From Candidatus Saccharimonadota bacterium (GTDB lineage Bacteria; Patescibacteriota; Saccharimonadia; Saccharimonadales; Saccharimonadaceae), in contig JAIKZA010000008.1 of assembly GCA_024682595.1 (NCBI GenBank), positions 10,697 to 74,696 of the forward strand: a DNA stretch of 64,000 nucleotides, written 5' to 3'. Made by a program: the position numbers and the translations under genes. Shown here piece after piece: positions 173-63,044 of this stretch; positions within the stretch are counted from its first letter, which is position 1, and each line of letters begins with the position of its first letter. The notes beneath the pieces are model-generated. The model was not told the DNA's origin. It searched no databases and was given only the letters and a program-made list of their open reading frames with translations.

Positions 173-182
173 TAGATTACCT

Positions 183-257
183 TCCCCTGTAGCTCAATGG
201 TGGAGCAAGAAGCTGTTAACTTCGAGGTTGCCAGTTCGAGTCTGGCCGGGGGAGCCA
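183..257 (+). tRNA. tRNA-Asn (anticodon GTT), 75 nt with encoded CCA
   Basis: Hand-folded cloverleaf. Acceptor TCCCCTG/CGGGGGA, D stem GCTC/GAGC, anticodon loop CTGTTAA, T stem GCCAG/CTGGC with TTCGAGT loop, then discriminator G and CCA. Confidence 0.9.
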
Positions 258-1742
258 AGATTGAGTTTTTGACATTGATGATAACGTATTAAAGGGCTCT
301 AACAGATTACAGTTGAGCCTTTTTTGGTCGATTTTAAGGTTCGAAAATAAAAGTTTCAAAATCTTGTTCTTTTGCTCTGGTTTCGAACTTTCAAATATTG
401 TTCGTGCCTTTGAGGCTAGTTCTAACAGATAAGAACGGCTTACATCGAAACTTTTGTCATTGTTTGTCAGTTCCATTAACTTGCTATCCTTTTCGTTGAT
501 TTCGGCTTCTATCTTTGTCGCAATTTTGTCATACTCATCCACAGTAATACGACCGTTTAGCCTATCTTCATACAATATCTCTTTTTTCTTTGTAGCCTTT
601 TCTATACCATCACGGACTTCTTTAATCGCATTACGGTAGTAAAGTTGGATATTGTCGTGTTTTTCCTTCAAGTCTGCTACTATTTCATCTACTAGAGTTT
701 GGCTGATACTGATTTTATCAAGCACCGAACATACTTGCGACAAAATTTCTTCTTCCGAAGCGTGGTTTCCGCATTTACCCTTTGCTTGTGAGCACTTTAC
801 GTAAATATGACCTTTCTTGTAATAGGAACTCATACTGCATCCACAGACACCACATTTCAATATGCCGTTCAGAGCAAAGTGATATTTCGTGTCGACCTTA
901 TTTTTCTTACATCCTTCATTAGTTCTTATTAGTTGGGCTCTGTCGAAGGTTCTTTTGTCGATAATTGGCTCGTATTTATGCGGGTATAAGTTGCCGTCGT
1001 ATCGCATAACACCATAATAAAACGGATTACTTAGTACACCTTCGATGACACTCTTTGAGATAGGCTTTGGGCGTTTAGTGTTGCTTGTCATACCCTCGCT
1101 TCGCATAGTATTAGCAATACTTCTGAACGTTTCGCCTTTTAGCCTCAAGTCGAAAATCTTTTCGATATATTGTCGTCTGGCTGGGTCAGGGATAATACCT
1201 TTCTTGCCGTTCGGTAAGTTAATGTTTATGTAGCCTATTGGTGCTTTTCCAGGGAATTCGCCATCGTGAAGTTTCTGTTCAATCCTACGCTTTACGTTGT
1301 CGGAAATTGCGGATGAATAGTATTCGCCGAATACCATACCGATACCTAGACGGGTTTTATCGCAGGCTGGCGAGTTTTTATGAAAGACTAGACCGTCTGA
1401 CGGAAAGTGTAATTCCAGTTTCCCATCTCTAACTCTATCTTTCAAAATTCTTACTACTTCAGATGTAGCATCACGAGTAAAGCGGTCGATTTTATCGAAC
1501 ACTACAACTGCCTTTTCTTCGCAATGAGCAATATCCATTACTATCTCTTGGAATTTTCGACGGTCTTCTTTGTAAGCCGTTTCATCAAAACTGTGTAAAG
1601 TGGCTCTTAGCCCTAACTGCTCAGCATAATTTTTTAGCCTTAATTCCTGAGCAGGTAGTGCATCGACCTGGCTTGGGTCGGATACCCGTGCAATTAAAAA
1701 TGCCTTCATCCCTTCATAGTTAGTTTTCGTATTAAAATTCAT
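216..1742 (-). CDS. Large serine recombinase (integrase)
   Basis: N-terminal resolvase domain (AFLIARVSDPSQ, catalytic Ser context), recombinase domain, Cys-rich zinc ribbon (CGVCGCSM...CSQAKGKCGNH) and a coiled coil. The stop TAA (218-216) lies antisense within the tRNA anticodon loop. An alternative start at M12 (1709) is possible. Confidence 0.9.
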   Translation of the reverse strand: MNFNTKTNYEGMKAFLIARVSDPSQVDALPAQELRLKNYAEQLGLRATLHSFDETAYKEDRRKFQEIVMDIAHCEEKAVVVFDKIDRFTRDATSEVVRILKDRVRDGKLELHFPSDGLVFHKNSPACDKTRLGIGMVFGEYYSSAISDNVKRRIEQKLHDGEFPGKAPIGYININLPNGKKGIIPDPARRQYIEKIFDLRLKGETFRSIANTMRSEGMTSNTKRPKPISKSVIEGVLSNPFYYGVMRYDGNLYPHKYEPIIDKRTFDRAQLIRTNEGCKKNKVDTKYHFALNGILKCGVCGCSMSSYYKKGHIYVKCSQAKGKCGNHASEEEILSQVCSVLDKISISQTLVDEIVADLKEKHDNIQLYYRNAIKEVRDGIEKATKKKEILYEDRLNGRITVDEYDKIATKIEAEINEKDSKLMELTNNDKSFDVSRSYLLELASKARTIFESSKPEQKNKILKLLFSNLKIDQKRLNCNLLEPFNTLSSMSKTQSWLPRPDSNWQPRS

Positions 1743-1799
1743 AATTATCCTTTCGTTTACTTTATATTATATAACATTACTTAACAATATGTACCAAAA

Positions 1800-2921
1800 T
1801 TATAGCAATAAAAAGTAGTTTTTCATCCTTGTCGGCTTCTTTCTTCTTATTACGTCGCTTATCTTCGTTAGAACTTTCAAATTATCATCTTCTGGCAAAG
1901 GCAAAATACTCTTTGATAATCGATACCAGGCTTTGCTTCCTAACTTCTTTTCGATGAGGCTTCTAGCATTCCTGCTATCATCCGAACTAGCCATAAGTGA
2001 GTAGTACCCTAAACTTGCCAAGAGGTTCATCGGTCGGACATTGTCATTAGTGAGCAGTTTTACAAGGATGTTGTCAGGAGTTTGAAAATCTAATTGAGCC
2101 TTTGGAACCTTGCTCAAAATTCTTTGCCAATGGTAATTTACGACTTTGCTCGAAATATCGGATGAGAATAATCTGCCGAATGTTAGGTCGTCTGATGGCA
2201 GACCAATCTTTTCGAGCATAGAGCGTATTTGCTTCTTGCCGTTAAGTCTAACCTCAACACGAAGAACCGAGATGTTTCTGTTTTTATTGAAGGCATCGAT
2301 TAAATTTTGTTGCACCAGACTATCGCTTTCGTATGCTCTTTTCGGGCTTTTGATACTTTGTTTTAAATCTTCAACCTTGTCGTAAAGTGCCACGTCTAGT
2401 GCGTTTGTGTGGATATGAAAAATGTGTCCGCCATTACGAAATGTATCTTTTTCCACGTCATACACTTTAGATATGTCAGCACGTCTTACGATACCAGTAA
2501 TGTAGGAAACTGGCATACCGTTATCCAAGACAATGTTTTTCGAGTAATCAATTTTTGATACTTCTAAGTTCTCAAGTTGGAACTTAAATAGCCACAAAGA
2601 TTTCATTTCTCTTAGTACGTCAGACAGAGCCTTTAGGACGGTTGGGAAATCATCGTCAGTCAACTCATCGAAATTATTATTGAATACCAATTTCGGAACA
2701 GATAGTTCTATGGCGAGTTGATATGTTTTACCGCCTCTTGCTGGTCTTTCGGTATACGTCAGCCTCGGATAATACTTTCCAGTCTTTTTCATCATCACTG
2801 TTGGGTTGTATATGCCTTGGATAACACCCTTTTCTTGCTCTTTAAAGAGTTGGAAGTCCAGGTCGCTTTTACGCAACGGTCTAGATAAGTTCATAGTCAG
2901 TTTTACCGTGTCTATCATCAT
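1800..2921 (-). CDS. Putative replication initiation protein (filamentous-phage gpII / Phage_CRI-like family)
   Basis: The N-terminus MIDTVKLTMNL and the IELSVPKLVFNNNFDEL block recall gpII-type MIDMLVL... and ASPAKVLQGHNVFG. The match is from memory, not a search. Start chosen at MMIDTV; the ORF track extends to 2942. Confidence 0.5.
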   Translation of the reverse strand: MMIDTVKLTMNLSRPLRKSDLDFQLFKEQEKGVIQGIYNPTVMMKKTGKYYPRLTYTERPARGGKTYQLAIELSVPKLVFNNNFDELTDDDFPTVLKALSDVLREMKSLWLFKFQLENLEVSKIDYSKNIVLDNGMPVSYITGIVRRADISKVYDVEKDTFRNGGHIFHIHTNALDVALYDKVEDLKQSIKSPKRAYESDSLVQQNLIDAFNKNRNISVLRVEVRLNGKKQIRSMLEKIGLPSDDLTFGRLFSSDISSKVVNYHWQRILSKVPKAQLDFQTPDNILVKLLTNDNVRPMNLLASLGYYSLMASSDDSRNARSLIEKKLGSKAWYRLSKSILPLPEDDNLKVLTKISDVIRRKKPTRMKNYFLLL

Positions 2922-3183
2922 TACTTCTTTCGAACAGTTCATTACATTTTTTAATGATTAAGTTTTCTAATTGCTTACCGCATTCCGAGTTGATTGGATG
3001 GAAAACGTTCAGATATTTCGTTCCTATTCTTTTTGTTGGATAAAGTATCCTGTATGAGCCGTCTAGGCGTGTATACACGGCGATTGAGCCGAGATATATG
3101 TTGTCATCGATTACTACGCTCGCAAACGCTACAAGACCATCCTGTGGCTTTACGGGGCATATTTTTACTTCACTTATCTTCAT
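2881..3183 (-). CDS. spoVG: SpoVG-family protein
   Basis: MKISEVKI..DGLVAFASVVIDDNIYLGSIAV...YPTKR....FHPINS aligns well with B. subtilis SpoVG (MEVTDVRL..AIASITLD..PSKR..IAHPINS). AAAGGAA Shine-Dalgarno (SD) before the ATG at 3183. Confidence 0.75.
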   Translation of the reverse strand: MKISEVKICPVKPQDGLVAFASVVIDDNIYLGSIAVYTRLDGSYRILYPTKRIGTKYLNVFHPINSECGKQLENLIIKKCNELFERSNDDRHGKTDYELI

Positions 3184-3295
3184 ATTCCTTTGCCTGCTTA
3201 CTGTTTTCATTGTCAAAATCCGCTTCCATTAAAGCGTCGATGAAGGCGACTAGCCTTTCTTTTTGCTCTGTGGTTAATTCGGATTTATTATTCAT
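3170..3295 (-). CDS. Small acidic ORF, 41 aa (MNNKSELTTEQKERLVAFIDALMEADFDNENSKQAKEYEDK)
   Basis: Found by reading; it is below the ORF-track size cut-off. Its stop overlaps the spoVG-like ATG. TATAGT sits 6 nt upstream of its ATG. Confidence 0.3.
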   Translation of the reverse strand: MNNKSELTTEQKERLVAFIDALMEADFDNENSKQAKEYEDK

Positions 3296-3308
3296 AGCCC
3301 GACTATAC

Positions 3309-3340
3309 AAAAAATGACTCTGTACAATTTCATACAGAGT
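3309..3340 (-). terminator. Rho-independent terminator after the 310-aa gene
   Basis: Perfect 8-bp stem ACTCTGTA/TACAGAGT (3317-3324 / 3333-3340) with an 8-nt loop, followed on the minus strand by TTTTTT (3309-3314). Confidence 0.65.
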
Positions 3341-3369
3341 TTACAGAGAGAAAATTGACGGTTTTTAAA

Positions 3370-4302
3370 TTATTTGAACAACTTTGGGTTCAAAATATAT
3401 GTATTATTGCCGTCCTGGATAATTAGTTTTTCGCCAAGACCCGTTGCCAGCATAAATCGGTTATTTATGTTGCGAATAGACTGATACACCTTCCTTTGAA
3501 ATTTTGCGTGTTCTTCATTGCTTTCGCTAAACCAATCTCTGTTTTCGCATTTTTCGTAGAAATCTACTGGCTCGTATGACCTAGTTTTACTGAAGTTTTT
3601 TCGACCAAAGAAGATATGAAGTAGAACTGATGCTATTCCGCCCTTAAATTGGATAGTCTTACCGTTAATTTCTAATGTAGAATGGCTATTATTTACAAAA
3701 CCTATGTCAGCAATCGTTGCAGGGATAGAATATTTTTCTGTTCTTTCTTCTAGTGTGGCTATTTTTGCAAGAATTAACTTTTGACTTTCTTTTATGTCTG
3801 ATATTCCTGCAACAAACTGTAAATCTGCCGAATTCTTATAGACAATACCATTATCGTTATATTTTTCTTCTATCTCAGCAGACATCGATACTAGACAGGA
3901 CGAGCCACTCTGTATTTCGTCTATCTTTGAAACGCTTTTTGTGGCTTCTTCGTAGACTTCTGAGATTGAGTTAATCGCTTTGAGCGATAATGTAATATCC
4001 TTGCCGATAGCCTGCGACGGCGTAATGTCTATTCGTAAACTACTTGTAGCACTTAAGAAACTGTTTATTAGTTCCTGGGTCGGAGCAAAGGCTCTTTGGA
4101 CAGACTGGACAAATTCATCTAAACTTGAGACAAATGTGGCATTTGCAAAAAGTCTGTTTTGCTGGTCGGCTACACTTTGAATAGCGTTTTGGAGTCCTGA
4201 GGTTCGGGCGGTCAATATTTCCGAAATTCCGCTCAAATTATAAAGGCTAGGTATAGCCGTTAACTGCTCAGGATGTGGTTTTACATCTTTCAAATCTGTC
4301 AT
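3370..4302 (-). CDS. Hypothetical protein with a probable C-terminal winged-helix (OmpR/CadC-like) DNA-binding domain; candidate island regulator
   Basis: Long ORF divergent from the excisionase gene. The C-terminal pattern LEINGKTIQFKG...VYQSIRNINNRF...LIIQDGNNTYILNP resembles the trans_reg_C layout. Confidence 0.5.
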   Translation of the reverse strand: MTDLKDVKPHPEQLTAIPSLYNLSGISEILTARTSGLQNAIQSVADQQNRLFANATFVSSLDEFVQSVQRAFAPTQELINSFLSATSSLRIDITPSQAIGKDITLSLKAINSISEVYEEATKSVSKIDEIQSGSSCLVSMSAEIEEKYNDNGIVYKNSADLQFVAGISDIKESQKLILAKIATLEERTEKYSIPATIADIGFVNNSHSTLEINGKTIQFKGGIASVLLHIFFGRKNFSKTRSYEPVDFYEKCENRDWFSESNEEHAKFQRKVYQSIRNINNRFMLATGLGEKLIIQDGNNTYILNPKLFK

Positions 4303-4344
4303 TACTTTTTCCCGTAGTTCTATTAAATATTGTATAATAAAAGT
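4303..4344. promoter_or_regulatory. 42-bp divergent promoter/operator region
   Basis: TATAAT at 4333-4338 (plus strand) lies 6 nt before the ATG at 4345. TACAAT on the minus strand faces the 310-aa gene. Confidence 0.4.
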
Positions 4345-4536
4345 ATGAAAAGTGAGAAAGAATTACCTGAGTATCTTACCCTGCAAGAGGTAAGCCAAAT
4401 GCTAAAAGTTCATCCCAATACCTTAAGGGCGTGGGACAACAATGGAACGCTGAAGGCGGTACGAATTGGAGCCAAAAAAATCCGTCGCTACCGAAAAGTA
4501 GATATTGATAATTATGTCGAACAAAGGTTGATATAG
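4345..4536 (+). CDS. Excisionase / MerR-type helix-turn-helix DNA-binding protein
   Basis: LTLQEVSQMLKVHPNTLRAWDNNGTLKAVRIGAKKIRRYR matches the HTH_17/excisionase pattern. The ATG at 4345 is preferred over the TTG at 4330, which overlaps the -10 box. Confidence 0.8.
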   Translation: MKSEKELPEYLTLQEVSQMLKVHPNTLRAWDNNGTLKAVRIGAKKIRRYRKVDIDNYVEQRLI

Positions 4537-4585
4537 AAGCATTAAAACATATCGAGCGTGAGATTATGGGGTATAAAAAAACGGT

Positions 4586-6067
4586 ATGCTAACAGTTAAA
4601 AACCTTGTTAAATATTACGGTGAGGATTTGGTACTTGGGGGTGTATCTCTGACGGTGGATTTTGGTGAAAAAGTGGGGCTTGTCGGTGTGAACGGAGCAG
4701 GTAAATCGACCTTACTCAAAATCATTGCAGGAATTGAAAAGGCAGATGATGGAAAAATTGAAACTGGCAAAACTGGTACGATTGGTTTTTTGCGACAGGA
4801 GTTTAGTTTAGTCGAAGAAGCACAACTCGTTGAGGACTACATTACAGCATCAAATATACCCTCGCAAAACTTATACAAAGTCGACATCATTCTTGACGGA
4901 TTAGACTTCCCGCAACCATTAAGGAATAGTCGTATTTCCGATTTAAGTGGTGGACAAAAAAGCAAATTGTTATTGGCTTTGGCATTGTTGGATGGAGAAG
5001 ATATATTACTACTAGACGAACCAACTAACAATCTAGACCTGGATGCGATAATGTGGCTCGAAAACTACCTCATTGGCACTACTACGCCTATGATTATTGT
5101 TTCGCACGACCGTAGATTTTTGAATAAAATCACTACTAAAATACTAGAAATTGACGAAGCGACAAGAAAAATCAAGGAGTATGCTGGCAATTATGATTTC
5201 TATCACGAAATGAAAAGGCTAGAATTGGAACATTCGATTTCAGCGTACGAACAATACCAAACAAAGGTAGCCAGTCTAGAAGCAGACATTAGGCAGAAGA
5301 AGCAGTGGGCAATGAAGGGTCAGAGGTATATTCCAAAAGATAATGACAAATTCGATAAGGGATTTATGCGAGACCGCTCAAAGAGTTTAACGAAATCAGC
5401 GAAAAGTTTGGAAAGAAAAATCGGACAACTAGAGAAAGTTGACCGCCCAGACTTAAAACAGCCTCTTAAAATTGAGATTGATGAAACAAAGATTAAAGGT
5501 TCAACTCTAATCCGTCTAACAGACTTGGTGTGTGGGTATAATGATGGATTTCAAACTAAACCTATTACTTTTGACTGTCAATTTGGAGAGCGAGTAGTTA
5601 TTCTAGGTAAAAACGGGACTGGAAAATCTACCTTAATTAAGACAATCTCTGGGGAAATTCCTCAGTTATCTGGCGATATAAGCATAGGGACTGGAATTAG
5701 GATAGGATATATCTCTCAAGACACGAAAATGGATACCGAGAAGACAGTGAGCGAATATCTGCTTGGTGATGATAGAGACAAAACAACCGTGTTTACAGTA
5801 ATGAAACGTTTTAACTTCCCCTACGAAAACCGAAATAAATTATATCGAGATTTAAGTCCAGGGGAACGCACTAGAGTAATGTTGGCAAGATTTGCTCTGA
5901 ATGGAGTTAACACGCTTTTACTAGATGAGCCGACGAACCACCTCGACATTGAAGCCTTGGAAGCACTAGAGGAATTGTTGACAAGTTTTAGCGGTAGTGT
6001 TATTTTAGCAAGCCACGACCGAAGTTTAATAGAAAAAATTCACCCAACAAAACAAGTTGAGATGTGA
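4586..6067 (+). CDS. ABC-F family ATPase (two nucleotide-binding domains (NBDs), no transmembrane (TM) domain)
   Basis: Walker A GVNGAGKST and GKNGTGKST. Signatures LSGGQKSK and LSPGERTR. Walker B LLLDEPTNNLD and LLLDEPTNHLD. A charged inter-domain linker of about 95 aa. Confidence 0.9.
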   Translation: MLTVKNLVKYYGEDLVLGGVSLTVDFGEKVGLVGVNGAGKSTLLKIIAGIEKADDGKIETGKTGTIGFLRQEFSLVEEAQLVEDYITASNIPSQNLYKVDIILDGLDFPQPLRNSRISDLSGGQKSKLLLALALLDGEDILLLDEPTNNLDLDAIMWLENYLIGTTTPMIIVSHDRRFLNKITTKILEIDEATRKIKEYAGNYDFYHEMKRLELEHSISAYEQYQTKVASLEADIRQKKQWAMKGQRYIPKDNDKFDKGFMRDRSKSLTKSAKSLERKIGQLEKVDRPDLKQPLKIEIDETKIKGSTLIRLTDLVCGYNDGFQTKPITFDCQFGERVVILGKNGTGKSTLIKTISGEIPQLSGDISIGTGIRIGYISQDTKMDTEKTVSEYLLGDDRDKTTVFTVMKRFNFPYENRNKLYRDLSPGERTRVMLARFALNGVNTLLLDEPTNHLDIEALEALEELLTSFSGSVILASHDRSLIEKIHPTKQVEM

Positions 6068-6086
6068 GTTAAAAGGCGAACGAATA

Positions 6087-6317
6087 TTAATTAATCGACC
6101 ACTTCGAGTCGACTTCATACCATTGGATTAGACTAATTACTTTTTCGGCTATTTTTGTGTCTGTTTTTGCTTGTTCGACATAGTTATGCGCTATTCTTTG
6201 CACTATCGTGAAATCGCTCATATCAAGGTCGTTAAAATCCGCCTCTTTTATAGATGAAAACTGTTTCATCCAGTATGCTAACTCTTTTTTGGTTGTGCTA
6301 TCGTTGATATTATCCAT
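6087..6317 (-). CDS. Hypothetical small acidic protein (76 aa)
   Basis: ORF overlaps the stop of the upstream HNH gene by 8 nt, suggesting translational coupling. Confidence 0.5.
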   Translation of the reverse strand: MDNINDSTTKKELAYWMKQFSSIKEADFNDLDMSDFTIVQRIAHNYVEQAKTDTKIAEKVISLIQWYEVDSKWSIN

Positions 6318-7263
6318 TATTGTCTTCCTCTTTCGTCAATTGCCATTCGAGGTTATCACTTTTGGCTTGATTATCTTCGGGCTTTAGTAATTGCAAGTTA
6401 GTATAGTGGCACAACTCTATGACATCTTGCTCAGTCTTAGCGGTGGCTAACGGTATAATATGGTCTATATGGTAAGGCTCGCCGTTCCACTCTGTGCCGT
6501 AATTTGCTTGCCAAGTGCCTAATAAATAATCGACAAAGGTATTAAAATCACAACCTAGTATTTGCTCGGTCTTAGTACCTTTCTTATATCCCGTGCGGTT
6601 AAAAGAGTTGCGTATAAGGTTGCGGGTTTGCTCTTTTAATTTTAATATCGGGTCGTTGGCTAGTCTTTTAATAGCGTATGCCGTGTGCTTTTTCTGTATC
6701 TCTACCTTGTTTGCTTGGTAATATGCTTGTCGCCACTCGGCTCGCTTTTCTTTATGTTTATGGTAGTTGGCTCGGTTCTTTTCTAAATACTTTTCGTGGT
6801 CGGCATAATACTCATCTTTTTTCTTTGCCAAAATCTCGTCGTGGTTCTCTTTGTAATAGTTGGCTTTGTAGGCTTTTCTCTCATCTATATGCTCTTGCCA
6901 ATACTTTTTATGCCACTCGCTAATCTCGTCTTGGTGTGTGGCTCTGTAAGCCTGTTGATAGGCTATCACGGCGTCGGTATTAGCCCTATAATAAGTTTTT
7001 TGCCTTTCTAGTACACGCTCTTTGTTTTTCTCGTAATACTCTTTGCCTTTTTCTTTAATATAGTCGGCGTTTTGCTCTCTGTATTTTTTATTGTAATCGC
7101 TTAACTTTTGCTTATTCTCTCGGTAGTAATCTTGCCTTGCTTGGTATCGGCAAGCCTTGCACTCATTGCGATATTTGCCCGTATCTCGCCTAAAAATAAA
7201 CTCGGTTAGAGGCTTAGTCTTACCGCACTTTGTACAAATCTTTGTATCGTTCTGCACGTTCAT
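6310..7263 (-). CDS. HNH endonuclease with an N-terminal zinc ribbon and about ten 15-aa YYxxN helical repeats
   Basis: CTKCGKTK...CKACRY zinc ribbon. Repeats run from YYRENKQKL to YYQANKVEI. C-terminal HNH core YHIDHIIPL....NLQLL..EDNQAK. AAGGA SD. Confidence 0.8.
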   Translation of the reverse strand: MNVQNDTKICTKCGKTKPLTEFIFRRDTGKYRNECKACRYQARQDYYRENKQKLSDYNKKYREQNADYIKEKGKEYYEKNKERVLERQKTYYRANTDAVIAYQQAYRATHQDEISEWHKKYWQEHIDERKAYKANYYKENHDEILAKKKDEYYADHEKYLEKNRANYHKHKEKRAEWRQAYYQANKVEIQKKHTAYAIKRLANDPILKLKEQTRNLIRNSFNRTGYKKGTKTEQILGCDFNTFVDYLLGTWQANYGTEWNGEPYHIDHIIPLATAKTEQDVIELCHYTNLQLLKPEDNQAKSDNLEWQLTKEEDNNG

Positions 7264-7432
7264 CTTTTATCCTTAAGGCGTATGCTTGGCAATGTTGTCT
7301 GTATTATTAATATTATAACATTTTTCTACACTTTCGCTGTTTGCCACATCTTGCGAAGCATTGATATAATTGTTCTGTTGATATAAAATTACTTTGACTT
7401 CCTCAAGTTTTTCCGAGTCATAGGAAAAGAGA

Positions 7433-7464
7433 GCGGTTCGAAATGTGTCCGCCAACGGGAGCCA
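7433..7464 (+). repeat. att-like degenerate copy of the tRNA-Asn 3' end (copy B)
   Basis: GTGTCCGCCAACGGGAGCCA (7445-7464) matches tRNA 238-257 at 14/20 positions, including the terminal GGGAGCCA. A GGTTCGAA T-loop-like stretch lies upstream. Confidence 0.6.
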
Positions 7465-7755
7465 TTTTTGACTATTCGCACAATTTGATAACGATTTGAA
7501 AGGCTCTAACAGATTAAATTGGAGTCTTTTTTGATTGATTTTAAGGTTCGAAAATAATAGTTTCAAAATCTTGTTCTGCTGCTCTGGTTTCGAATTTTCA
7601 AATATAGTTCGTGCCTTTGACGCTAGTTCTAACAGACAAGAGCGGCTTATATCGAAACTTTTGTCATTGTTTGTCAGTTCCATTAACTTGCTATCCTTTT
7701 CGTTGATTTCGGCTTCTATCTTTGTCGCAATTTTGTCATACTCATCCACAGTAAT
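7465..7755 (-). pseudogene. 3' fragment of a second large serine recombinase gene
   Basis: Colinear, ungapped with 258-548. The last 250 nt or so are about 90 percent identical by eye. It encodes DEYDKIATKIEAEINEKDSKLMELTNNDKSF..., nearly identical to the C-terminus of the intact recombinase. No N-terminal catalytic domain is present. Confidence 0.85.
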
Positions 7756-7789
7756 GCACCCGTTGCCCGGCCCCGGGAACCAAAATTTA

Positions 7790-8887
7790 CTAACTAGCTT
7801 GCTGCAAAAAGGTATTTATTGCACCTGCTAATTTGTCAGTAGGGTACTCCCATATTTCATGTGGACCTGGCACCTCAATGAACGCCGCATTTTCATCCTG
7901 TAAAGCCTTTTGATTATCGTCCTTGTATCCTTTATAAAAATTAATATATTCCTCCATCGCTTTTTTATCTCCTCCAAAACTGCTAAGTGCCGTCTCCTTG
8001 AAATATTTTTCATAATAGTCTTTATCGAACTGGTTAGCAGCGATAAACAATTTTGCTAATTTACGATAATTTTCACCCCTAATCTTTATTGTATTTTCAG
8101 CGTTAGCTTTTTCTAGTTCCGACTCACTTACTACGAAATCTGGAAAGGCATTTTCCATCCCTAGAATTTTGCTTGCTCTTGCTAAATCCTCCGTAAAATA
8201 TCCTGTTTTCACTAATTGCTCAGCCTCAGCATCTCTCGTTGCTTCATCCAGCATAAACAAGCGGTGTAATCCTAATTTTGCGGCAATATTGTAGAGGTGA
8301 GTAGAAAACCAATCATAATGATTATATTTTTCCTCTATGGCATTTTCCGGAGAGCCAATATCAAGTGCTATCATCCCGCTTACTTCCTCAGGATATTTTT
8401 CCGCCCAATACATTGCATACTGTCCAGCAATGGAATGAGGCATCAAAATTACAGAGGTTTCCACCCCTATTTCTTTCAGCGTTTTGCGATAAAACTCAAC
8501 GATAAAGTCCGAAGTCGCGTCTATACCAGTATCCTCGGATAAAGCATATCCAGGACGATTTATCAGTATTACTCGCGCGTTCACCTTCTCGGCTAACGGC
8601 GTGAACGAAAGTGCGGCGTTCTGCACATTTAGCCCTGGCATCAAAACTAAAGTATGCTCGGTTTTTTCAGAATTAAAAACTTTGTAATTAACCTCTTGCC
8701 CATCCACCATCACCGTTCTACCAATGTCATAAGATTTTAGCAACTCCCATTCTCGCCCTATCTGTATCTTATGGTTAATAAAAACACCCAGGACAAACAA
8801 AAACATACATCCTAGCAATATACCCGCTATGATGCCAGAGACTTTCAAGATTTTGCGAAATTTCAAACTTTTTTCGTTTTTAACCAT
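7790..8887 (-). CDS. Membrane-anchored alpha/beta hydrolase
   Basis: N-terminal TM helix, nucleophile elbow MPHSIAGQY and LVLMPGL oxyanion region. TATAAT lies 6 nt upstream of the ATG. Confidence 0.75.
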   Translation of the reverse strand: MVKNEKSLKFRKILKVSGIIAGILLGCMFLFVLGVFINHKIQIGREWELLKSYDIGRTVMVDGQEVNYKVFNSEKTEHTLVLMPGLNVQNAALSFTPLAEKVNARVILINRPGYALSEDTGIDATSDFIVEFYRKTLKEIGVETSVILMPHSIAGQYAMYWAEKYPEEVSGMIALDIGSPENAIEEKYNHYDWFSTHLYNIAAKLGLHRLFMLDEATRDAEAEQLVKTGYFTEDLARASKILGMENAFPDFVVSESELEKANAENTIKIRGENYRKLAKLFIAANQFDKDYYEKYFKETALSSFGGDKKAMEEYINFYKGYKDDNQKALQDENAAFIEVPGPHEIWEYPTDKLAGAINTFLQQAS

Positions 8888-9043: not shown

Positions 9044-9067
9044 TAATGTGTCAGCCAGGGGGAGCCA
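9044..9067 (+). repeat. att-like copy of the tRNA-Asn 3' end (copy C); probable outer island boundary
   Basis: GTGTCAGCCAGGGGGAGCCA (9048-9067) matches the tRNA 3' end at 16/20 and copy B at 17/20. Sequence to its right is unrelated to the element ends. Confidence 0.5.
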
Positions 9068-9197
9068 GGTTTAATATACAGATATATATTCAAATAAAGA
9101 GACGCTCGTAAGCAATGAAGAGGTCTTTTTTTGTTGTTTTTATAAAAATATTCAAAAGTACTTGTTTTTACGATTCGTTTATGCTTAAATACGTTTA

Positions 9198-9250
9198 TAA
9201 AAAGGTCAAATAAAAAGGTCAAATAAAAAGGTCAAATAAAAAGAAAGGTT
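9198..9250 (+). repeat. 13-bp tandem repeat (TAAAAAGGTCAAA x3 plus a partial copy) just upstream of the protease gene
   Basis: GGTC recurs at 9204, 9217 and 9230. A fourth, partial unit merges into the AAAGG SD of the ATG at 9257. Confidence 0.95.
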
Positions 9251-9256
9251 ACCTAT

Positions 9257-11983
9257 ATGGTTAGGAGAAAAAAGTCTTTGCTTTTTTCGGCATCATTAGC
9301 ATCTGCGGGTTTAGTCGCCGGCGGGTTGTTCATGATTGCCCCAAAAACGCAAGCGAGTAGCGATGAGGTCGCTATATCAAATACAGCAAACGCAGTAATT
9401 CAGGAAATCAGCAAAGAAAGCGGAATTTCAGCTAAAGGCGTGGAGACTGCTCTGAAAACCCATGAGCTAATAGTCAACATTCCAAACCTAGATGAATTTA
9501 AAGAAAGCCATCCAGACGCCATAAAGTATACAAAAATAGCCGAAAAGGTATACGTAGTCGAGTTCGCAGATTATAACACCACATCCGCAAACTATCTTGA
9601 TATAAAAGAAAAAGATAACAATTCTGGCGTTCTTTTAAATATGCAGTTAAAACTTGACGACGATGCAGAATCGAATGCGATATATAATTACGAGGAAATA
9701 AACCGATGCACTAATCGCTCTGCTACAACATACACAAATGGTACTAGCATACCAGACCAGTGCTTGGGCTGGGGAACTTCCGCCATGAAACTAGACACCT
9801 ATGCGAAAAGTCTAACTTCTGGCCAAAAAGTTACCGTTGCTGTGATTGATAGTGGCGTCCGCGCGTCTCACTGGGCATTCAAGAAGACAACCGTAGGCGA
9901 CCGCCTCGATATGACCTATGCTCACGATTATTACGATAACGACACAAATCCCGACGATAGTGGAAACGACGCCAACGACAGCATGACAGCAACTTGCAAT
10001 ATCACTACTCAAACATGCACTAACGTAAGTGCTGGCGCCTCAAGAGTAACGCATGGCACATCTGTTGCAGGAACAATCACCCAGGCCACTCCGGCGAGTG
10101 TAAAAATTGTTCCCATCCGCATTTCCGGCGGTAAAAGCATTGATCTTACGAAGGTAGTAATAGCTGTTTCTGAGTTAAAGGGTAAGGTTGACGTAATCAA
10201 CTTAAGTCTCGGCCTCGTAGAACAATTACCAAATCCGCTACCAGAAGAGTTTCAGACCACAATCGAACCTGCTTTTAGGGAAGCTAAAGAGGCTGGCACT
10301 ATTATAGTGGCCTCGGCCGGCAATGGTAGCGCTGGCTGGGTTTCTTATCCAGCGTCTAGTGACTATACCATCGCCGTATCTTCCGTCAATAATGCTAAAT
10401 CATTCTCGTCGTCGTTTTCTCAACATGGCGCAGAAATCGATTTCGCGGCACCTGGCGAGGAGCTTCTCCTGCCAACATCAAGTACTGGCGCGGATAATAC
10501 ATTAACCCTAATTGGTGGTACATCTTTCTCTGCACCTTACATTTCTGCAGCAATAGCAAATATCTTAACCGAACACCCAAACTATAACTACAACCAGGTC
10601 TATAACGCCCTTAAACTCGATGCTGAAGACTTAGGCGCAGCTGGCAAAGATGAGTACTATGGTTGGGGCAGCGTAAGCTTCCATGTTAACAAATACGCGG
10701 ATTTAAGTATTTCGACGCCAGCCGTAACAGCGGCAACTAACTGGACAAATAGTAATGCCACCATTAAAGCTACTGCGAGCAGTAACGCGTACAATATTAA
10801 TAAGTACAAAGTAGACAATGGCAATACCACAACCGCTACTCCGAGCTCTTGGTCAACCATTTCTTCGTCCAGTAAATCATACAACCTTTCGCAAACTGTC
10901 TCCGCAAACGGAACATATACGCTTTGGTTCAAGAATAGCAACAACGAGACCGCCTCGAAGACCGTTACGGTAAATAATATTGATAAAACCGCACCGGTAA
11001 TTAGCACCGCCCTCTCAGCAAGCAGTGTTACGGCTAATGGGGCAACTTTAAATATTGGAGTAACAGATAGCGCAAGTGGTCTCGGTCGAATCGTCTGGCA
11101 CTATAAAGAAAACTATGCAAGCAGCTATACAGACAAGACCGAAACGTATGCTAGCTCGAGTACTGGTGAGACTTCCGCAACAACTAAGAGCCTAGTTCTA
11201 ACTGGGCTCAATGAATCCTCCCGATACGCAGCATATGCGACCGTCTATGATGTTGCGGGCAACGCTAAAGATTCTGAAACAATTTACTTTGCCACTAGAG
11301 CAGCGAGCGATCCGTCAGTTCCGGCGACTAGTATTGCTGTCAGCCCCGCAACCGCAAACGTCAACGTAGGAGCTACGCTAAGCTTGACCGCCACCGTCAC
11401 TCCTACAAATTCAACCGATACGATTACTTGGAGCAGTAGCGATAGTAGTGTTGCGACAGTTGATGCGAATGGCGTCGTAAAAGGGATAAAAGCAGGAACA
11501 GCGACCATTACCGCCAAGGCGAACGACAATGTCTGGAACACCGCTATTATAACCGTAAAAGCTACTACAACGACGGTTCCAGCAACAGACATAAGCATTA
11601 ATCCTGTTTCTGTCAGTATTAACGTCGGCGAGGAAGCAACCCCAACCGTAACGCTTACTCCTACAAATTCAACCGATACGATTACTTGGAGCAGTAGCGA
11701 TAGTAGTGTTGCGACAGTGTCTAGCACTGGTAAAATAATAGCCGTTAAGGCTGGCACGGCCACCATTACCGCTATGGCAAATAGCAATGTGTCGGCAAAT
11801 ATTACAGTTACCGTACTAGGGGGAACAAACAACGATCCAGTAGCTCCTACTGAGCCAACCGAACCAAAAGACGTTAACATAAAGAATCCTAAAACTGCCG
11901 ATATTAATACTCCTGCAATAGCAAGCGTAGGTGGAATTCTGAGCGCTCTAGCGTTCTTCATCTTCCGCGCAAAACGCCGTTAG
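9257..11983 (+). CDS. Secreted, cell-surface subtilisin-like (S8) serine protease with Ig-like and two Big_2 domains
   Basis: Signal peptide. Catalytic motifs VAVIDSGV, HGTSVAGT and GGTSFSAPY. Two Big_2 repeats (..WSSSDSSVATV...KAGTATITA). C-terminal NPKTAD, then a hydrophobic helix and RAKRR tail. Confidence 0.9.
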   Translation: MVRRKKSLLFSASLASAGLVAGGLFMIAPKTQASSDEVAISNTANAVIQEISKESGISAKGVETALKTHELIVNIPNLDEFKESHPDAIKYTKIAEKVYVVEFADYNTTSANYLDIKEKDNNSGVLLNMQLKLDDDAESNAIYNYEEINRCTNRSATTYTNGTSIPDQCLGWGTSAMKLDTYAKSLTSGQKVTVAVIDSGVRASHWAFKKTTVGDRLDMTYAHDYYDNDTNPDDSGNDANDSMTATCNITTQTCTNVSAGASRVTHGTSVAGTITQATPASVKIVPIRISGGKSIDLTKVVIAVSELKGKVDVINLSLGLVEQLPNPLPEEFQTTIEPAFREAKEAGTIIVASAGNGSAGWVSYPASSDYTIAVSSVNNAKSFSSSFSQHGAEIDFAAPGEELLLPTSSTGADNTLTLIGGTSFSAPYISAAIANILTEHPNYNYNQVYNALKLDAEDLGAAGKDEYYGWGSVSFHVNKYADLSISTPAVTAATNWTNSNATIKATASSNAYNINKYKVDNGNTTTATPSSWSTISSSSKSYNLSQTVSANGTYTLWFKNSNNETASKTVTVNNIDKTAPVISTALSASSVTANGATLNIGVTDSASGLGRIVWHYKENYASSYTDKTETYASSSTGETSATTKSLVLTGLNESSRYAAYATVYDVAGNAKDSETIYFATRAASDPSVPATSIAVSPATANVNVGATLSLTATVTPTNSTDTITWSSSDSSVATVDANGVVKGIKAGTATITAKANDNVWNTAIITVKATTTTVPATDISINPVSVSINVGEEATPTVTLTPTNSTDTITWSSSDSSVATVSSTGKIIAVKAGTATITAMANSNVSANITVTVLGGTNNDPVAPTEPTEPKDVNIKNPKTADINTPAIASVGGILSALAFFIFRAKRR
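11399..11718 (+). repeat. Two exact 62-nt copies inside the protease gene (11399-11460 and 11657-11718)
   Basis: The two copies are identical on direct comparison. The 258-nt spacing equals one Big_2 domain. Confidence 0.95.
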
Positions 11984-27557: not shown

Positions 27558-28448
27558 GTGAGAACAACAAAGATCCTTTCCATTGCATTAACACTACTCT
27601 GCGCGTCACTGACTGCATGCGCAGGGGCAACAAAACCGAATCAGCAGCAGCAGCAGACCGTAAGTCAGCCGGCAGCTGAAGCTCAGCCCGAAGACAACGT
27701 GAGCAGCGTCGGTATCGAATCTCCGGACAACAGCAGAGCCGAAAAAGACAAGGAAGCTCGGGAAGAGCTTTATCCTGAAAAAGAGCCTGAGCATGAAGGC
27801 GACGTCGGTATCGAATCTCCGGACAACAGCAGAGCCGAAAAAGACAAGGAAGCTCGGGAAGAGCTGGAACGCCAGCAGGAAGAAGCCGAAAGGCAGCGCG
27901 AAGAAGAGGAGCGCCAGCAGGAAGAACAGGCATACTCTGGAAACGGCACTTATATCCTGAGTGACGGCACCGAAGTACAAACCGAACATAGGATCGAGGA
28001 CTATATCGAGAAAAATGAGTATCGCGTGAAGAGAGATGGGGTTATAGTTCCTAAACACGAGTTTATTCTTGATGTCGGAAGAATGTGCTACGACATCTTT
28101 GGCTCTGGCGAGCTCGAAGGGGCAGCTGGTTTCGATTTTGAGGGCGGCGGAGTCGAATTCTCAGAGTTCGACAAAAAGAATCTGGCGCACGCAATTACTA
28201 TTGAGGTAAGAGACGCCGACAATTTTGCAGCTTACTCCATCGTAAAGATGTTCGACTGCTCAATGCAGGCAAACTGGCTTCCCGACGACGAGCACGATAT
28301 AAAAGTCGGTGAGTCGTATATGCATTTAGACTTAGCAGTACTTATTTTGTACGGGCTCGAGCAGGCGGAAACCAACCCTAGACGGGATATTTTTGCGGAT
28401 ATCTCGTTTGTAAGCAATTACGGTAGCAAAGACGCTCGACGTTGGTAG
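27558..28448 (+). CDS. Lipoprotein with a duplicated E/K/R-rich segment and an unknown C-terminal domain; compositionally foreign
   Basis: GTG start, signal peptide with lipobox LTAC. Visibly higher G+C than the flanks. Confidence 0.8.
   Translation: MRTTKILSIALTLLCASLTACAGATKPNQQQQQTVSQPAAEAQPEDNVSSVGIESPDNSRAEKDKEAREELYPEKEPEHEGDVGIESPDNSRAEKDKEAREELERQQEEAERQREEEERQQEEQAYSGNGTYILSDGTEVQTEHRIEDYIEKNEYRVKRDGVIVPKHEFILDVGRMCYDIFGSGELEGAAGFDFEGGGVEFSEFDKKNLAHAITIEVRDADNFAAYSIVKMFDCSMQANWLPDDEHDIKVGESYMHLDLAVLILYGLEQAETNPRRDIFADISFVSNYGSKDARRW
27707..27865 (+). repeat. Exact 63-nt direct repeat (27707-27769 and 27803-27865), 96-nt period
   Basis: The two copies are identical. Each encodes VGIESPDNSRAEKDKEAREEL. 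Confidence 0.95.
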
Positions 28449-31376: not shown

Positions 31377-31473
31377 AATTATCCCAATTATAGCATAAAC
31401 AATTTGTAAATATCTAATAAGCACTTGCTTTTTTTATTAGATGATGATTAGATTTAAATAGGAGTGCTATATT

Positions 31474-32079
31474 ATGGCAAAAACAAAAATTCAAACAACA
31501 AGGTCAAATAAACACACCGCCATGATGATAATTGGTGGAGTTTTTCTTGTTGCGGTGCTTTGTTTTGGCGCTTTAGCTGGCATAAAAATGGCAAGCAAGG
31601 ACGAAAAAGTAGTAATTGAAGAAAGCGATATTAATACCGCAAATACAGAAAAGGAACAAAAACAGCCAACTCCCGAATCGGATATTGACAAAAATTACAC
31701 CACCCCAGGAAACGAAGCGAAGGCAAAAAATGACGAACTCGAAAAAAGACAACACCAACAAGTAGAAAGAAATGAGTCTGGTCTAAAGAAAGCAAATGTA
31801 TTATTGCACGATCCTTATGTCGTAGGAGAAAAAACAGTAATTAGTAGTACTATCACGAATATTGTCGAAACCGAGGGAACCTGTAGCTATATATTCACAA
31901 AAGATACTCAGTCCGTAACGAAGATGACTTCAGTATTACCTAATGCAAAAAACACTGTGTGCGAAGCGGTAGTGCTTGAAAAAGGATCACTCAGTTCAGG
32001 AGAATGGAAAGTAAGGCTTGAATATAAATCTAATTTATCGGAGGGCGTGAGTGAAACACAAACTTTTACAATTCAGTAA
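31474..32079 (+). CDS. Hypothetical membrane-anchored exported protein
   Basis: GGAG SD, one TM helix and a Cys-containing beta-rich C-terminus. Confidence 0.6.
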   Translation: MAKTKIQTTRSNKHTAMMIIGGVFLVAVLCFGALAGIKMASKDEKVVIEESDINTANTEKEQKQPTPESDIDKNYTTPGNEAKAKNDELEKRQHQQVERNESGLKKANVLLHDPYVVGEKTVISSTITNIVETEGTCSYIFTKDTQSVTKMTSVLPNAKNTVCEAVVLEKGSLSSGEWKVRLEYKSNLSEGVSETQTFTIQ

Positions 32080-62100: not shown

Positions 62101-63044
62101 TATTTTTGACTCCCTTCAGTACCTGGTTCACCCTTTTTAACATATAAGTGGGCAAGTTTATTGAAATCTCCTAGCGGCTCACGAACGGCGGTGTCTGGGT
62201 TATTGAAGTTGTAATAGAGCTGGCCTAGCTCTTTTGTGCTAAGGCGAACGGAGTGGATTCCGATTTGGAATAAGCCTGCAATAACGGCTTCTACGCGGTT
62301 GTTTATTTCTGTCACGGCCTTGTCGTAGGTGGCGCGGTCGATGCGAGTAATTGTTTGACCTTTGGCACGACTGAATGATTTGAAGAAATTCTTTGTTTGG
62401 GTTACGGCTTTTTCGGCTTCGGATGAAGTATAGTATGGAATTACAATAAAGAAAGATTTATCCATAATGTTTGCTTCCTGAGACAACTCGTCGATAAAGC
62501 CAATATAATCATCCATAAGAATGCCGAGGAGCATATTATCGTTGTCACGACGGAGTTCGGTTAAGCGATCTAGATAAGGTCCAATATCGACGCGTTGAGA
62601 ACGAATAAGGATTTGAACGGTAAAATTCAAGGAGTTTAAGAAGTTTTGATAAGAGTATTCAACCGCTTCACGCTCAGTCTCAGACATGAGATCAAAGTTA
62701 ATAGATTTACAGGCAACCACGGCCCTAAAGGAACCGTCTTTCATAATTACCATTGAGTCGCGTAACTCGGAAATAATTAATGACGCTTGAGTGGAAGTGG
62801 GATTTTCTTTTGGTGTAGCATCGCCGTTAGGAGCTTGTTGCTGTGGAATAGTGGTAGGCTGACCTGCAACCGGTTGACCCGCAACTGGTTGACCTGCAAC
62901 TGGCTGACTTACGATTGGCTGGCCAGCAACTGGTTGATTGGCAACTGGCTGGTTTATGATAGGTTGGCCAATAGGCGGCTGAGGAATACCGTTCATTGGT
63001 TGCGGGTTTTGCATTGGTAGTGGCTGTGGTTGATTTGGCTGCAC
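62100..63044 (-). CDS. Protein with an N-terminal QPxxx pentapeptide array and a VirB4-N-terminal-domain-like body
   Basis: GTG start with an AAGGAG SD. Stop TAA overlaps the virB4 ATG. The body (MVIMKDGSFRAVVACKSINFDLMSE...FFIVIPYY) parallels the N-domain of the downstream ATPase. Confidence 0.65.
   Translation of the reverse strand: MQPNQPQPLPMQNPQPMNGIPQPPIGQPIINQPVANQPVAGQPIVSQPVAGQPVAGQPVAGQPTTIPQQQAPNGDATPKENPTSTQASLIISELRDSMVIMKDGSFRAVVACKSINFDLMSETEREAVEYSYQNFLNSLNFTVQILIRSQRVDIGPYLDRLTELRRDNDNMLLGILMDDYIGFIDELSQEANIMDKSFFIVIPYYTSSEAEKAVTQTKNFFKSFSRAKGQTITRIDRATYDKAVTEINNRVEAVIAGLFQIGIHSVRLSTKELGQLYYNFNNPDTAVREPLGDFNKLAHLYVKKGEPGTEGSQK
62857..62976 (-). repeat. Eight tandem 15-nt units encoding QP(V/I)(A/V/I)(G/N/S)
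   Basis: Plus-strand GGYTGRCC(T/C)GCAAC(C/T)-type 15-mers read consecutively. Confidence 0.9.

Follow-up and report, generated by a model that had tools for sequence, protein, structure and literature searches.

Introduction

The archaeal 'suicidal' tyrosine integrases of the SSV1, pTN3 and pT26-2 types carry the attachment site of the element (attP) within their own int open reading frame (ORF) and target tRNA genes; integration splits int into inactive halves, and a 2021 review considered recombinases that disrupt the gene encoding them to be known only in archaea (PMC8371274). In mycobacteriophages such as BPs, attP lies in the 3' part of the repressor gene and integration, for which a tyrosine recombinase serves as integrase, removes an ssrA-like degradation tag, an effect that has been demonstrated (PMC4557955). 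Here, we describe a locus of a Candidatus Saccharimonadota bacterium at which a large serine recombinase very probably carries attP inside its own ORF and has its C-terminal tail changed by each insertion and excision, as would hold across its whole clade. The 64,000-nt stretch that was analysed (positions 10,697 to 74,696 of contig JAIKZA010000008.1, assembly GCA_024682595.1), hereafter the window, holds the recombinase gene within a small element that we call E1, which lies beside a tRNA-Asn gene.

With the suicidal integrases this recombinase shares an attP inside the integrase ORF, a gene that is divided on integration, a tRNA target and a compact module of gene and site. Unlike them, which have the Phage_integr_3 tyrosine fold and are inactivated, it is a bacterial (Patescibacteria) serine recombinase of which only the C-terminal tail is exchanged, the catalytic and DNA-binding domains remaining on one piece. 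As in the integration-dependent immunity of BPs, attP lies in the 3' part of a gene and the free and integrated forms differ in their C-terminus, but the gene crossed here is the serine recombinase itself and not a repressor.

To our knowledge, canonical serine integrases have attP outside the ORF and target protein-coding genes or intergenic DNA rather than tRNA 3' ends; here, in contrast, attP is inside the ORF and tRNA 3' ends are targeted. [quoted passage not shown] The AICEs pSAM2 and SLP1, of a family of about 9-17 kb, occur both as circles and integrated in tRNA genes and encode an FtsK/SpoIIIE-type transfer ATPase (PMC2440964). The elements described here resemble AICEs in their tRNA target, in the occurrence of both states (in a relative of E1), in an FtsK-like gene in one relative (L072) and in a recombinase neighbour that is like a replication protein (Rep) and reaches the threshold of the Pfam family Phage_CRI in another (L077); they differ in having a serine integrase, and E1 carries an ABC-F ATPase and an HNH-type gene and no FtsK-like gene. 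The domain order of resolvase, recombinase domain and zinc ribbon with coiled coil, together with short sites, is shared with A118/LI (Listeria), Bxb1 and phiC31, as is an outer motif that lies 5 bp closer to the centre in the chromosomal site (attB) than in attP (PMC3783163). A 2026 survey of proviruses found that tyrosine integrases preferentially target RNA loci (PMC13626063).

Nothing in the literature that we searched describes serine recombinases that sit at the ends of tRNAs in Saccharibacteria, or an attP inside a serine integrase gene, an absence that is no proof; a preprint on the mv4 integrase is silent on any overlap of int and attP. We know of no other serine-integrase clade with an att site in its own ORF and a C-terminus that changes with the integration state.

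Results

The recombinase gene ends inside a tRNA-Asn gene

The only tRNA that ARAGORN finds in the window is tRNA-Asn(GTT), and a recombinase gene on the opposite strand runs into it (Table 1). The 508-aa product, whose C-terminus reads ...SWLPRPDSNWQPRS, has the domains Resolvase (PF00239, residues 15-161), Recombinase (PF07508, 190-274) and Zn_ribbon_recom (PF13408, 291-336), a combination by which we classify it as a large serine recombinase. In an alignment of 44 homologues, R19, S21 (the catalytic serine) and D22, the cysteines 297, 300, 302, 317 and 324, and the residues W496 and L497 near the C-terminus are invariant.

A preliminary description of this DNA had placed the last 13 codons and the TAA stop of the recombinase antisense to positions 216-257 of the tRNA, and had read its Trp-Leu-Pro (WLP) codons as the complement of the tRNA end. 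The tRNA call, the ORF list and the sequence bear out both statements: TGGCTCCC is the complement of GGGAGCCA at 250-257, with the Trp codon TGG opposite the encoded CCA (255-257), and the TAA, complementary to 216-218, falls over part of the anticodon GTT (215-217) and over its 3' neighbour. The residues W496-L497-P498 sit over the core of the att site. Directly after the CCA, the sequence ATTTG…TTTT of the P' arm is conserved across members of the family.

Table 1. Features of the recombinase, the att sites and the elements in the window
Feature	Position	Strand	Basis or remark
tRNA-Asn(GTT), encoded CCA, B arm of attL	183..257	+	ARAGORN
Large serine recombinase, integrated short-tail form, 508 aa	216..1742	-	ORF list, domain matches
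42-nt overlap: 13 codons WLPRPDSNWQPRS and stop, antisense to tRNA 3' half	216..257	-	
attL core GGAGCCA, tRNA nucleotides 70-76; putative crossover within	251..257	.	7-bp identity of attP, attL, attR and attB in a homologue
P' arm of att site, last conserved recombinase codons (…SKTQS before W)	258..286	-	
Element E1, about 7.2 kb	258..7464	.	Synteny with L002-L004 over window 182-4513
Rolling-circle Rep-like protein	1800-2942		E1 gene beside recombinase
SpoVG-like protein	2881-3216		E1
HTH_17 excisionase-like protein	4330-4536		E1
ABC-F ATPase, two ABC_tran domains and linker	4586-6067		E1
76-aa ORF, conserved	6087-6317		E1
HNH/endonuclease-VII-like protein, 317 aa, between tail codons and 76-aa ORF	6310-7263		E1
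E1 right arm: P arm and detached tail-coding segment	7273..7464	-	Match to related islands; only tail frame open
T-loop-like motif GTTCGAAAT in P arm	7436..7444	+	Consensus of 22 P arms against 28 B arms
Core GGAGCCA at E1/E2 tandem joint	7458..7464	.	attP-like composition: E1 P arm and E2 P' arm
E2: decayed 3' third of second recombinase gene (...NG.ITVDEYDK to WLP)	7465..7772	-	Alignment, ORF list
Third P-arm remnant, attR: AATGTGTCAGCCAGGGGGAGCCA, tail WLPLADTLLTNTPKYG...	9044..9067	-	Matches right arms of L006, L007 and L038

Circle, integrated copy and empty site of a homologous element

The four sites of the reaction could be compared in a homologous element. A contig of 8,699 nt (L072) has an exact terminal overlap of 30 nt and therefore represents a circle of 8,669 bp; two contigs from other samples (L073 and L074) are circular permutations of it, so that the circle is present in three samples. 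On the circle, the recombinase ORF runs through TGGCTCC into a further tail, giving a protein of 532 aa (P0062) with a tail of class A (see below), and there is a 4-nt overlap of the following gene with its stop. The same element, with 96% DNA identity, is integrated in another contig, L012: the circle matches it up to TGGCTCC at the tRNA-Asn side (attL) and again from TGGCTCC at 3448 (attR). In L012 the recombinase ends in the short tail that is antisense to the tRNA, and the codons of the long tail lie detached at the other end of the element.

The empty site was predicted from the flanks of L012 and then searched in metagenomes, where one contig (L078) matched the predicted attB. Its tRNA-Asn is 100% identical to that of L012 and is joined directly to a flank 98.6% identical to L012 1-3454, from which an insertion of 8,040 bp in L012 follows. 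Only the 7 bp GGAGCCA are common to attP (L072), attL and attR (L012) and attB (L078). These are nucleotides 70-76 of the tRNA and, on the other strand, the codons for Trp and Leu and the first base of the next codon (Pro or Arg). Since the identity of attL and attR stops at the CCA in L003 and L004, the crossover does not lie downstream of the tRNA, and the sequences bound it to this 7-bp core.

The preliminary description had reasoned that an excised circle would encode the long tail and the integrated copy the short one, that the crossover would lie inside the recombinase gene, and that integration would remodel the C-terminus of the enzyme. The homologous element behaves in this way on each count, with a 532-aa long-tail form on the circle, a short-tail form in L012 and a shared core confined to the W-L codons, and the circular junction and empty attB suggested there as a check were both recovered for it.

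The detached tail is conserved as a coding sequence

The same far-end segment can be followed in the window. The conserved tail part of the E1 right arm is 7375-7464 (WLPLADTFRTALFSYDSEKLEEVKVILYQQ), and 7273-7374 is an extension specific to the window. Positions 7375-7464 are found again in L002, L003 and L004, three related islands with a single copy each, where they lie at the far end; the right arms of these islands end ...GTTCGAAATGTGTCCGCCAAAGGGAGCCA, that is, with the GGGAGCCA end, and beyond them unrelated chromosome begins; this recurrence identifies the right end of E1 (attR) and therefore delimits E1 as 258-7464. The earlier reading of 7273-7464 as the right arm of the element adjoining the tRNA agrees with it. 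Read on the recombinase strand, the arms give WLPLADTFRTALFSYD[SPT]EKLEEVKVILYQQ..., with a stop after 35 codons in L002-L004. In the window, the minus-strand ORF 7273..7749 reads ...SQKWLPLADTFRTALFSYDSEKLEEVKV...HTP and counts 63 residues from W to stop, as had been stated for the tail of the second recombinase copy. The HNH-like gene is inserted between the tail and the 76-aa ORF, and for this reason the tail of E1 runs on to 63 residues.

Differences between the tails are mostly silent (synonymous to non-synonymous codon differences 8:1, 12:3 and 13:3), and the other reading frames are closed. In the tail, the ratio of non-synonymous to synonymous substitution rates (dN/dS, NG86) between the window and L002 is 0.03-0.04, against 0.26-0.39 in the last 60 recombinase codons; over 21 pairs of class-A tails the median for tail codons 10-28 is 0.25. 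At least 20 loci have detached class-A tails of 28-35 codons plus stop, on the recombinase strand and at the far end of the island. Across the subfamilies compared, the detached tail has no internal start codon that is conserved, and the one candidate for an independent start, a TTG at codon 4 in the window subfamily, was rejected since it is CTA in other subfamilies. Because of its dN/dS (about 0.03-0.25), its open frame and its retained length and stop, in the absence of a conserved start, we read the tail as a translated and selected peptide under strong purifying selection. Its codons can join the recombinase gene only when both ends of the element are joined.

The rate of synonymous change in the tail segment (7375-7464) ranges from 0.7 to saturation, against 0.17-0.47 in the last 60 recombinase codons (258-437), in the pairs with L002 and L004. 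As these are the same pairs, the higher values in the tail point to different histories of the two ends of the element and suggest an exchange of arms between elements.

An in-frame relation between recombinase and tRNA throughout the clade

A search of 5.8 billion proteins (E <= 1e-20) returned 857 homologues, and the tails of the best 120 (53-100% identity) were classified. Among these 120 the sequence is conserved up to ...NWL. It had been considered that homologues might consistently end upstream of WLP; when this was looked at, homologues were found not to end upstream of WL. About 103 of the 120 tails after WL are of the type WL[PR]xxDSNQxPxx, and since DSN corresponds to the complement of the T-loop GTTCGAxTC, they are antisense-tRNA read-through. 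Tails of non-tRNA type, found in 15 of the 120, fall into three conserved classes: A (WL.L[AV]DTLRTA..YDE.K...IKE.L), to which the long tail of the window belongs, B (WLTTIEEVIT.IK.D.) and C (WLPIQVT[DE]). Several long tails end in hydrophobic -LVTV, -LVAV or -LYAV.

With one genome taken per species, we scanned 70 loci, nearly all of them in Saccharibacteria or other Patescibacteria; the closest to the window, both at 83% identity, come from a goat-gut Saccharibacteria genome and a Candidatus Nanosyncoccus genome. An antisense tRNA lies at the 3' end of the recombinase gene in 55 of the 70, and of the 15 loci with no called tRNA nine simply run into the end of their contig. In 53 of the 54 loci with such a tRNA that could be read, a Trp codon of the recombinase stands in frame as the complement of CCA, a relation far beyond chance. 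The target is tRNA-Asn in 38 loci; remoter relatives (32-50% identity) use, in an unchanged frame, tRNA-Arg, Gln, Asp, Gly, Leu, Trp and His. Including the stop, the overlap with the tRNA measures 12-282 nt over the loci and 27, 30 or 42 nt at most tRNA-Asn loci: the short tail is a run-on to the first stop. The arrangement with attP in the ORF is a trait of the whole clade and extends beyond the locus in the window. A scan of IMG/VR viral contigs with the recombinase alignment returned no relatives; these elements are not catalogued as viruses.

Architecture of the site and recognition of the target

The consensus of 22 P arms (...GTTCGCAATGTGTC.GC.AG.G.GAGCCA) and that of 28 tRNA-Asn 3' halves, the B arms (...GGTTCGAGTCC.G.C.C.GGAGCCA), share a GTTCG motif, which stands 24-28 nt from the terminal A of CCA in the P arms and 19-23 nt from it in the B arms. 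In the window, likewise, the GTTCG of the P arm is 5 bp further from the CCA than that of the T-loop of the tRNA (223-227). A 5-bp shift of the motif bound by the zinc-ribbon domain, closer to the centre in attB than in attP, has been described for serine integrases (PMC3783163), and judging from the spacing the shift seen here is this same offset. In our view, the T-loop would be what the zinc-ribbon domain reads, and the P arm would mimic the T-arm; the target would then probably be recognised via the tRNA itself, the P-arm sequence GTTCG(C/A)AA resembling the T-loop GTTCGA. The downstream flank on the other side (B') lacks conservation from one genome to another.

An attempt to place the crossover from the mirror symmetry of the P and P' arms was abandoned, as it gave inconsistent centres between +2 and +4.5 relative to CCA. 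It was bounded instead by the limits of attL/attR identity and by the spacing of the zinc-ribbon motif, which would put a 2-bp crossover near the GA of G-GA-GCCA, inside the 7-bp core.

Predicted structure of the long-tail form

An AlphaFold2 (AF2) model of the 532-aa long-tail recombinase, made from an alignment of 33 sequences, has a mean predicted local distance difference test (pLDDT) score of 75. It shows a serine-integrase fold with a long coiled coil of antiparallel helices (355-402 and 408-434), and its last confident element ends near residue 496. Residues 497-521, which include the crossover residues (W503 and L504 in the numbering of P0062), score below 50, and in the tail there is a low-confidence helix at 519-531. 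According to this model the crossover lies in a flexible C-terminal extension, for which reason the tail swap would be tolerated; all domains of the enzyme stay on the attL-side ORF after integration.

A tandem array of islands in the window

The preliminary description had reported a decayed recombinase copy with the same WLP at 7465-7755. The truncated copy, which we call E2, is real: 7457-7772 aligns to 250-565 with about 92% identity, the homology beginning exactly at GGGAGCCA, and the catalytic domain is missing. Its WLP codons, however, lie at 7457-7464 and not inside 7465-7755; they are the last 8 nt of the so-called E1 right arm. The junction at 7464 joins the E1 right arm to the left end of an element, as had been proposed, with the P arm of E1 on one side and, from 7465 onward, the P' arm of E2 (TTTTTGAC) on the other. 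A third core, at 9061-9067, lies within the P-arm remnant listed last in Table 1. This remnant is probably the outer boundary of the island array, the flank that follows from 9068 onward (GGTTTAAT) being taken as chromosomal.

Arrays also occur elsewhere (L076, L011, L020 and L051). In L076, a recombinase of 542 aa with a long tail is followed by a second element with a recombinase of its own. In L011 (1619-3724), L020 (137-853) and L051 (147-2244), detached tails of classes A and B lie within 2 kb of one another on the far side of the island, and their clustering suggests stacked right-arm remnants of successive elements.

Two further tRNA genes that the window might have held were rejected. 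ARAGORN finds none at 7380-7465, which is the T-loop-like P arm, and none at 7757-7786, where the apparent T-loop is partly recombinase coding homology (NG.ITV). Within the latter region, 7769-7786 (GCCCGGCCCCGGGAACCA) matches in 17 of 18 nt the 3' end of another tRNA-Asn allele, of the L007 type, over the 3' strand of the T-stem, the acceptor strand and the CCA; the tRNA-Asn of the window itself does not match. The segment sits between the E2 remnant and the end of an alpha/beta-hydrolase gene and could be an older element's arm or else a tRNA piece that was carried over. The hydrolase gene (7790-8887, minus strand) is enclosed, in the segment 7787-9043, between att remnants, and none of the 70 related loci carries a homologue of it; it may be cargo of a decayed element or trapped chromosome. 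In L003, about 74 bp past attR (4949-5022), a second TGGCTCCC is followed by a degenerate reading of tRNA-antisense type (WLPRLGSHRSEAE...), by its sequence another decayed site or a tRNA fragment.

Gene content of E1 and its relatives

The Rep-like neighbour of the recombinase measures 371-380 aa across relatives. Its match to Phage_CRI is above the cut-off in L077 (26.9 bits) and below it for the ORF in the window (16 bits). FtsK_SpoIIIE and FtsK_gamma domains, as of an FtsK/SpoIIIE-type ATPase, are present in L072, and E1 is without an FtsK-like gene. An HTH_17 excisionase-like gene is found in the relatives as in E1; the directionality factors known for serine integrases vary too much to be tested for by sequence. 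No tyrosine integrase is hidden among the ORFs of E1. PHROGs had no match to the Rep-like protein, to the SpoVG-like protein or to the small ORFs. The ABC-F ATPase and the inserted HNH-like gene make the cargo of E1 unlike that of its closest relatives. In the homologous element that forms the circle, the small ORF lying over the stop of the long tail (L012 3537-3758; L072 3036-3221) is very acidic, with EP/LP repeats (MIADLPEFQPLEPIDLNLEPLSLDFE...), and is unrelated to the 76-79-aa ORF found in the same position in the window subfamily.

Several repeats lie further along the window. Three to four tandem 13-nt units (AAAAAGGTCAAAT) at 9183-9253 stand just upstream of a gene for a 908-aa secreted, repeat-bearing protein (9257-11983), and a related copy is found at 31468-31512. 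There are also a perfect 63-nt direct repeat with copies 96 nt apart (27707-27865), five copies of a 162-170-nt unit (33050-34299) and a 15-nt tandem array (GGYTGACCYGCAACY) at 62842-62961.

Discussion

We propose that E1 is a small integrative, plasmid-like element of its Saccharibacteria host, and that the large serine recombinase of E1 itself inserted it at the very 3' end of tRNA-Asn. Its attP would sit in the 3' end of the recombinase gene, with the last conserved codons before Trp496 serving as the P' arm, and the crossover would fall within GGAGCCA, which on one strand encodes Trp-Leu-Pro and on the other provides nucleotides 70-76 of the tRNA, including CCA. The P arm would encode a further tail of 30-35 residues. 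In the circular form the ORF should cross the joint into this tail, giving a predicted 558 aa for E1, whose joint is expected to read ...GTGTCCGCCAACGGGAGCCA joined to AGATTGAG...; in relatives, a small co-oriented gene follows directly after the tail. Integration would shift the tail codons and everything downstream of them to the far end of the element, and the gene left at the tRNA would read antisense into it up to the first stop, yielding the 508-aa form and leaving the tRNA intact. E1 itself may still excise. We hold the structural part of this proposal, with attP inside the recombinase ORF and a tail that changes at each insertion and excision throughout the clade, to be highly likely.

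Several points count against it. For E1 itself, neither a circular junction nor an empty site was found, and the attB predicted for the window (GGGGGAGCCAGGTTTAATATACAG) had no metagenome match; all four sites together were recovered for a homologue, at just 57% protein identity. The shared core of 7 bp is longer than a serine recombinase needs, a 2-bp crossover is bounded only to the core, and the P' arm is only a weak mirror image of the P-arm motif. The tail of E1, at 63 aa, passes the usual stop, its normal end replaced by the HNH gene, and the E1 copy may be atypical. The AF2 model does not confidently place the tail in contact with the rest of the enzyme. Lastly, the route by which elements would accrete in tandem at an occupied site is a conjecture, because canonical serine integrases, as far as we know, do not recombine attP with attL.

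How, then, did the joint at 7464 arise? An occupied site (attL) would be reusable, as the B' flank is not conserved, and tandem arrays would grow with the newest element beside the tRNA; the intact element beside the tRNA and the decayed one distal to it fit such repeated insertion at an occupied site. Alternatively, two related islands could have given rise to the joint through homologous recombination or duplication, or a dimer could have been inserted. E1 and E2 do share 300 bp at 92% identity, and the general rule on attP and attL just mentioned speaks for this origin as well. We nevertheless find it unlikely, since the joint coincides exactly with the 7-bp core and is flanked by an intact P arm and, on its other side, by a P' arm, the segment adjoining the core is the most divergent part of the repeat, and L076 is built in the same way, as are L011, L020 and L051 with different tail classes. 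The conclusion that attP lies in the ORF stands whichever way this joint arose.

A second alternative accepts the conserved tail segment and attributes its retention to reasons other than the protein, either as an extended P-arm DNA site or through translational coupling to the next gene. The first nine or so tail codons overlap the conserved DNA motif of the P arm, and in the circle, as in L002, L003 and L012, the ORF that follows overlaps the stop of the tail or adjoins it. Yet codons 18-30, at a distance of 50-90 bp from the core, are further out than any half-site of a serine integrase and differ almost only at third positions; moreover, the genes that follow the tail are not homologous between subfamilies although the class of tail is common to them. 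An explanation that leaves the protein aside is thus rather improbable. Least of all can we favour an accidental run-on, in which the recombinase effectively ends at about WL and the extensions are unselected read-through with no conserved relation to the att site: although short tails are dictated by the tRNA sequence with variable stops and overlaps of 12-282 nt, and the residues around the crossover are predicted to be disordered (AF2), the frame is kept in 53 of 54 loci across eight tRNA targets and the long tails form conserved classes of 28-35 codons with dN/dS of 0.03-0.25 and a retained stop, so that this very improbable reading is already contradicted for the long tail.

That the tail swap has a real regulatory role is possible but doubtful, and we put forward with equal reserve, as a speculation, that it acts as a built-in sensor by which a serine integrase responds to the topological state of its element. 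If so, the long-tail enzyme, made only from the circle and together with the following gene, might be the form that is competent for integration or short-lived, and the short-tail enzyme might differ from it in stability, in control by the coiled coil or in the binding of partners. The integrated gene also converges on a strongly transcribed tRNA, and its expression could be affected by this. Together these effects might bias the direction of recombination, whether or not a classical directionality factor acts as well.

Among the tools of genome engineering, serine integrases are the main ones, and the control of their directionality is still being worked out. The 3' ends of tRNA genes are the territory of tyrosine integrases; here they are targeted by serine integrases, and the mimicry of the T-loop by the P arm, with its 5-bp shift, would provide a concrete and testable model of target choice and switching. 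For annotation, the recurrent C-termini of the type 'WLRRLDSNQRP' are explained as antisense-tRNA read-through. Few genetic tools exist for Patescibacteria, and an integrase with a defined and conserved attB, the end of tRNA-Asn, could be useful there, as could a natural circular vector of 8.7 kb in Saccharibacteria or other Patescibacteria. If it is true that these enzymes read the universal T-loop and the CCA end, this would explain how the clade hops among eight tRNA targets, and it would make available to Patescibacteria integrases with predictable targets.

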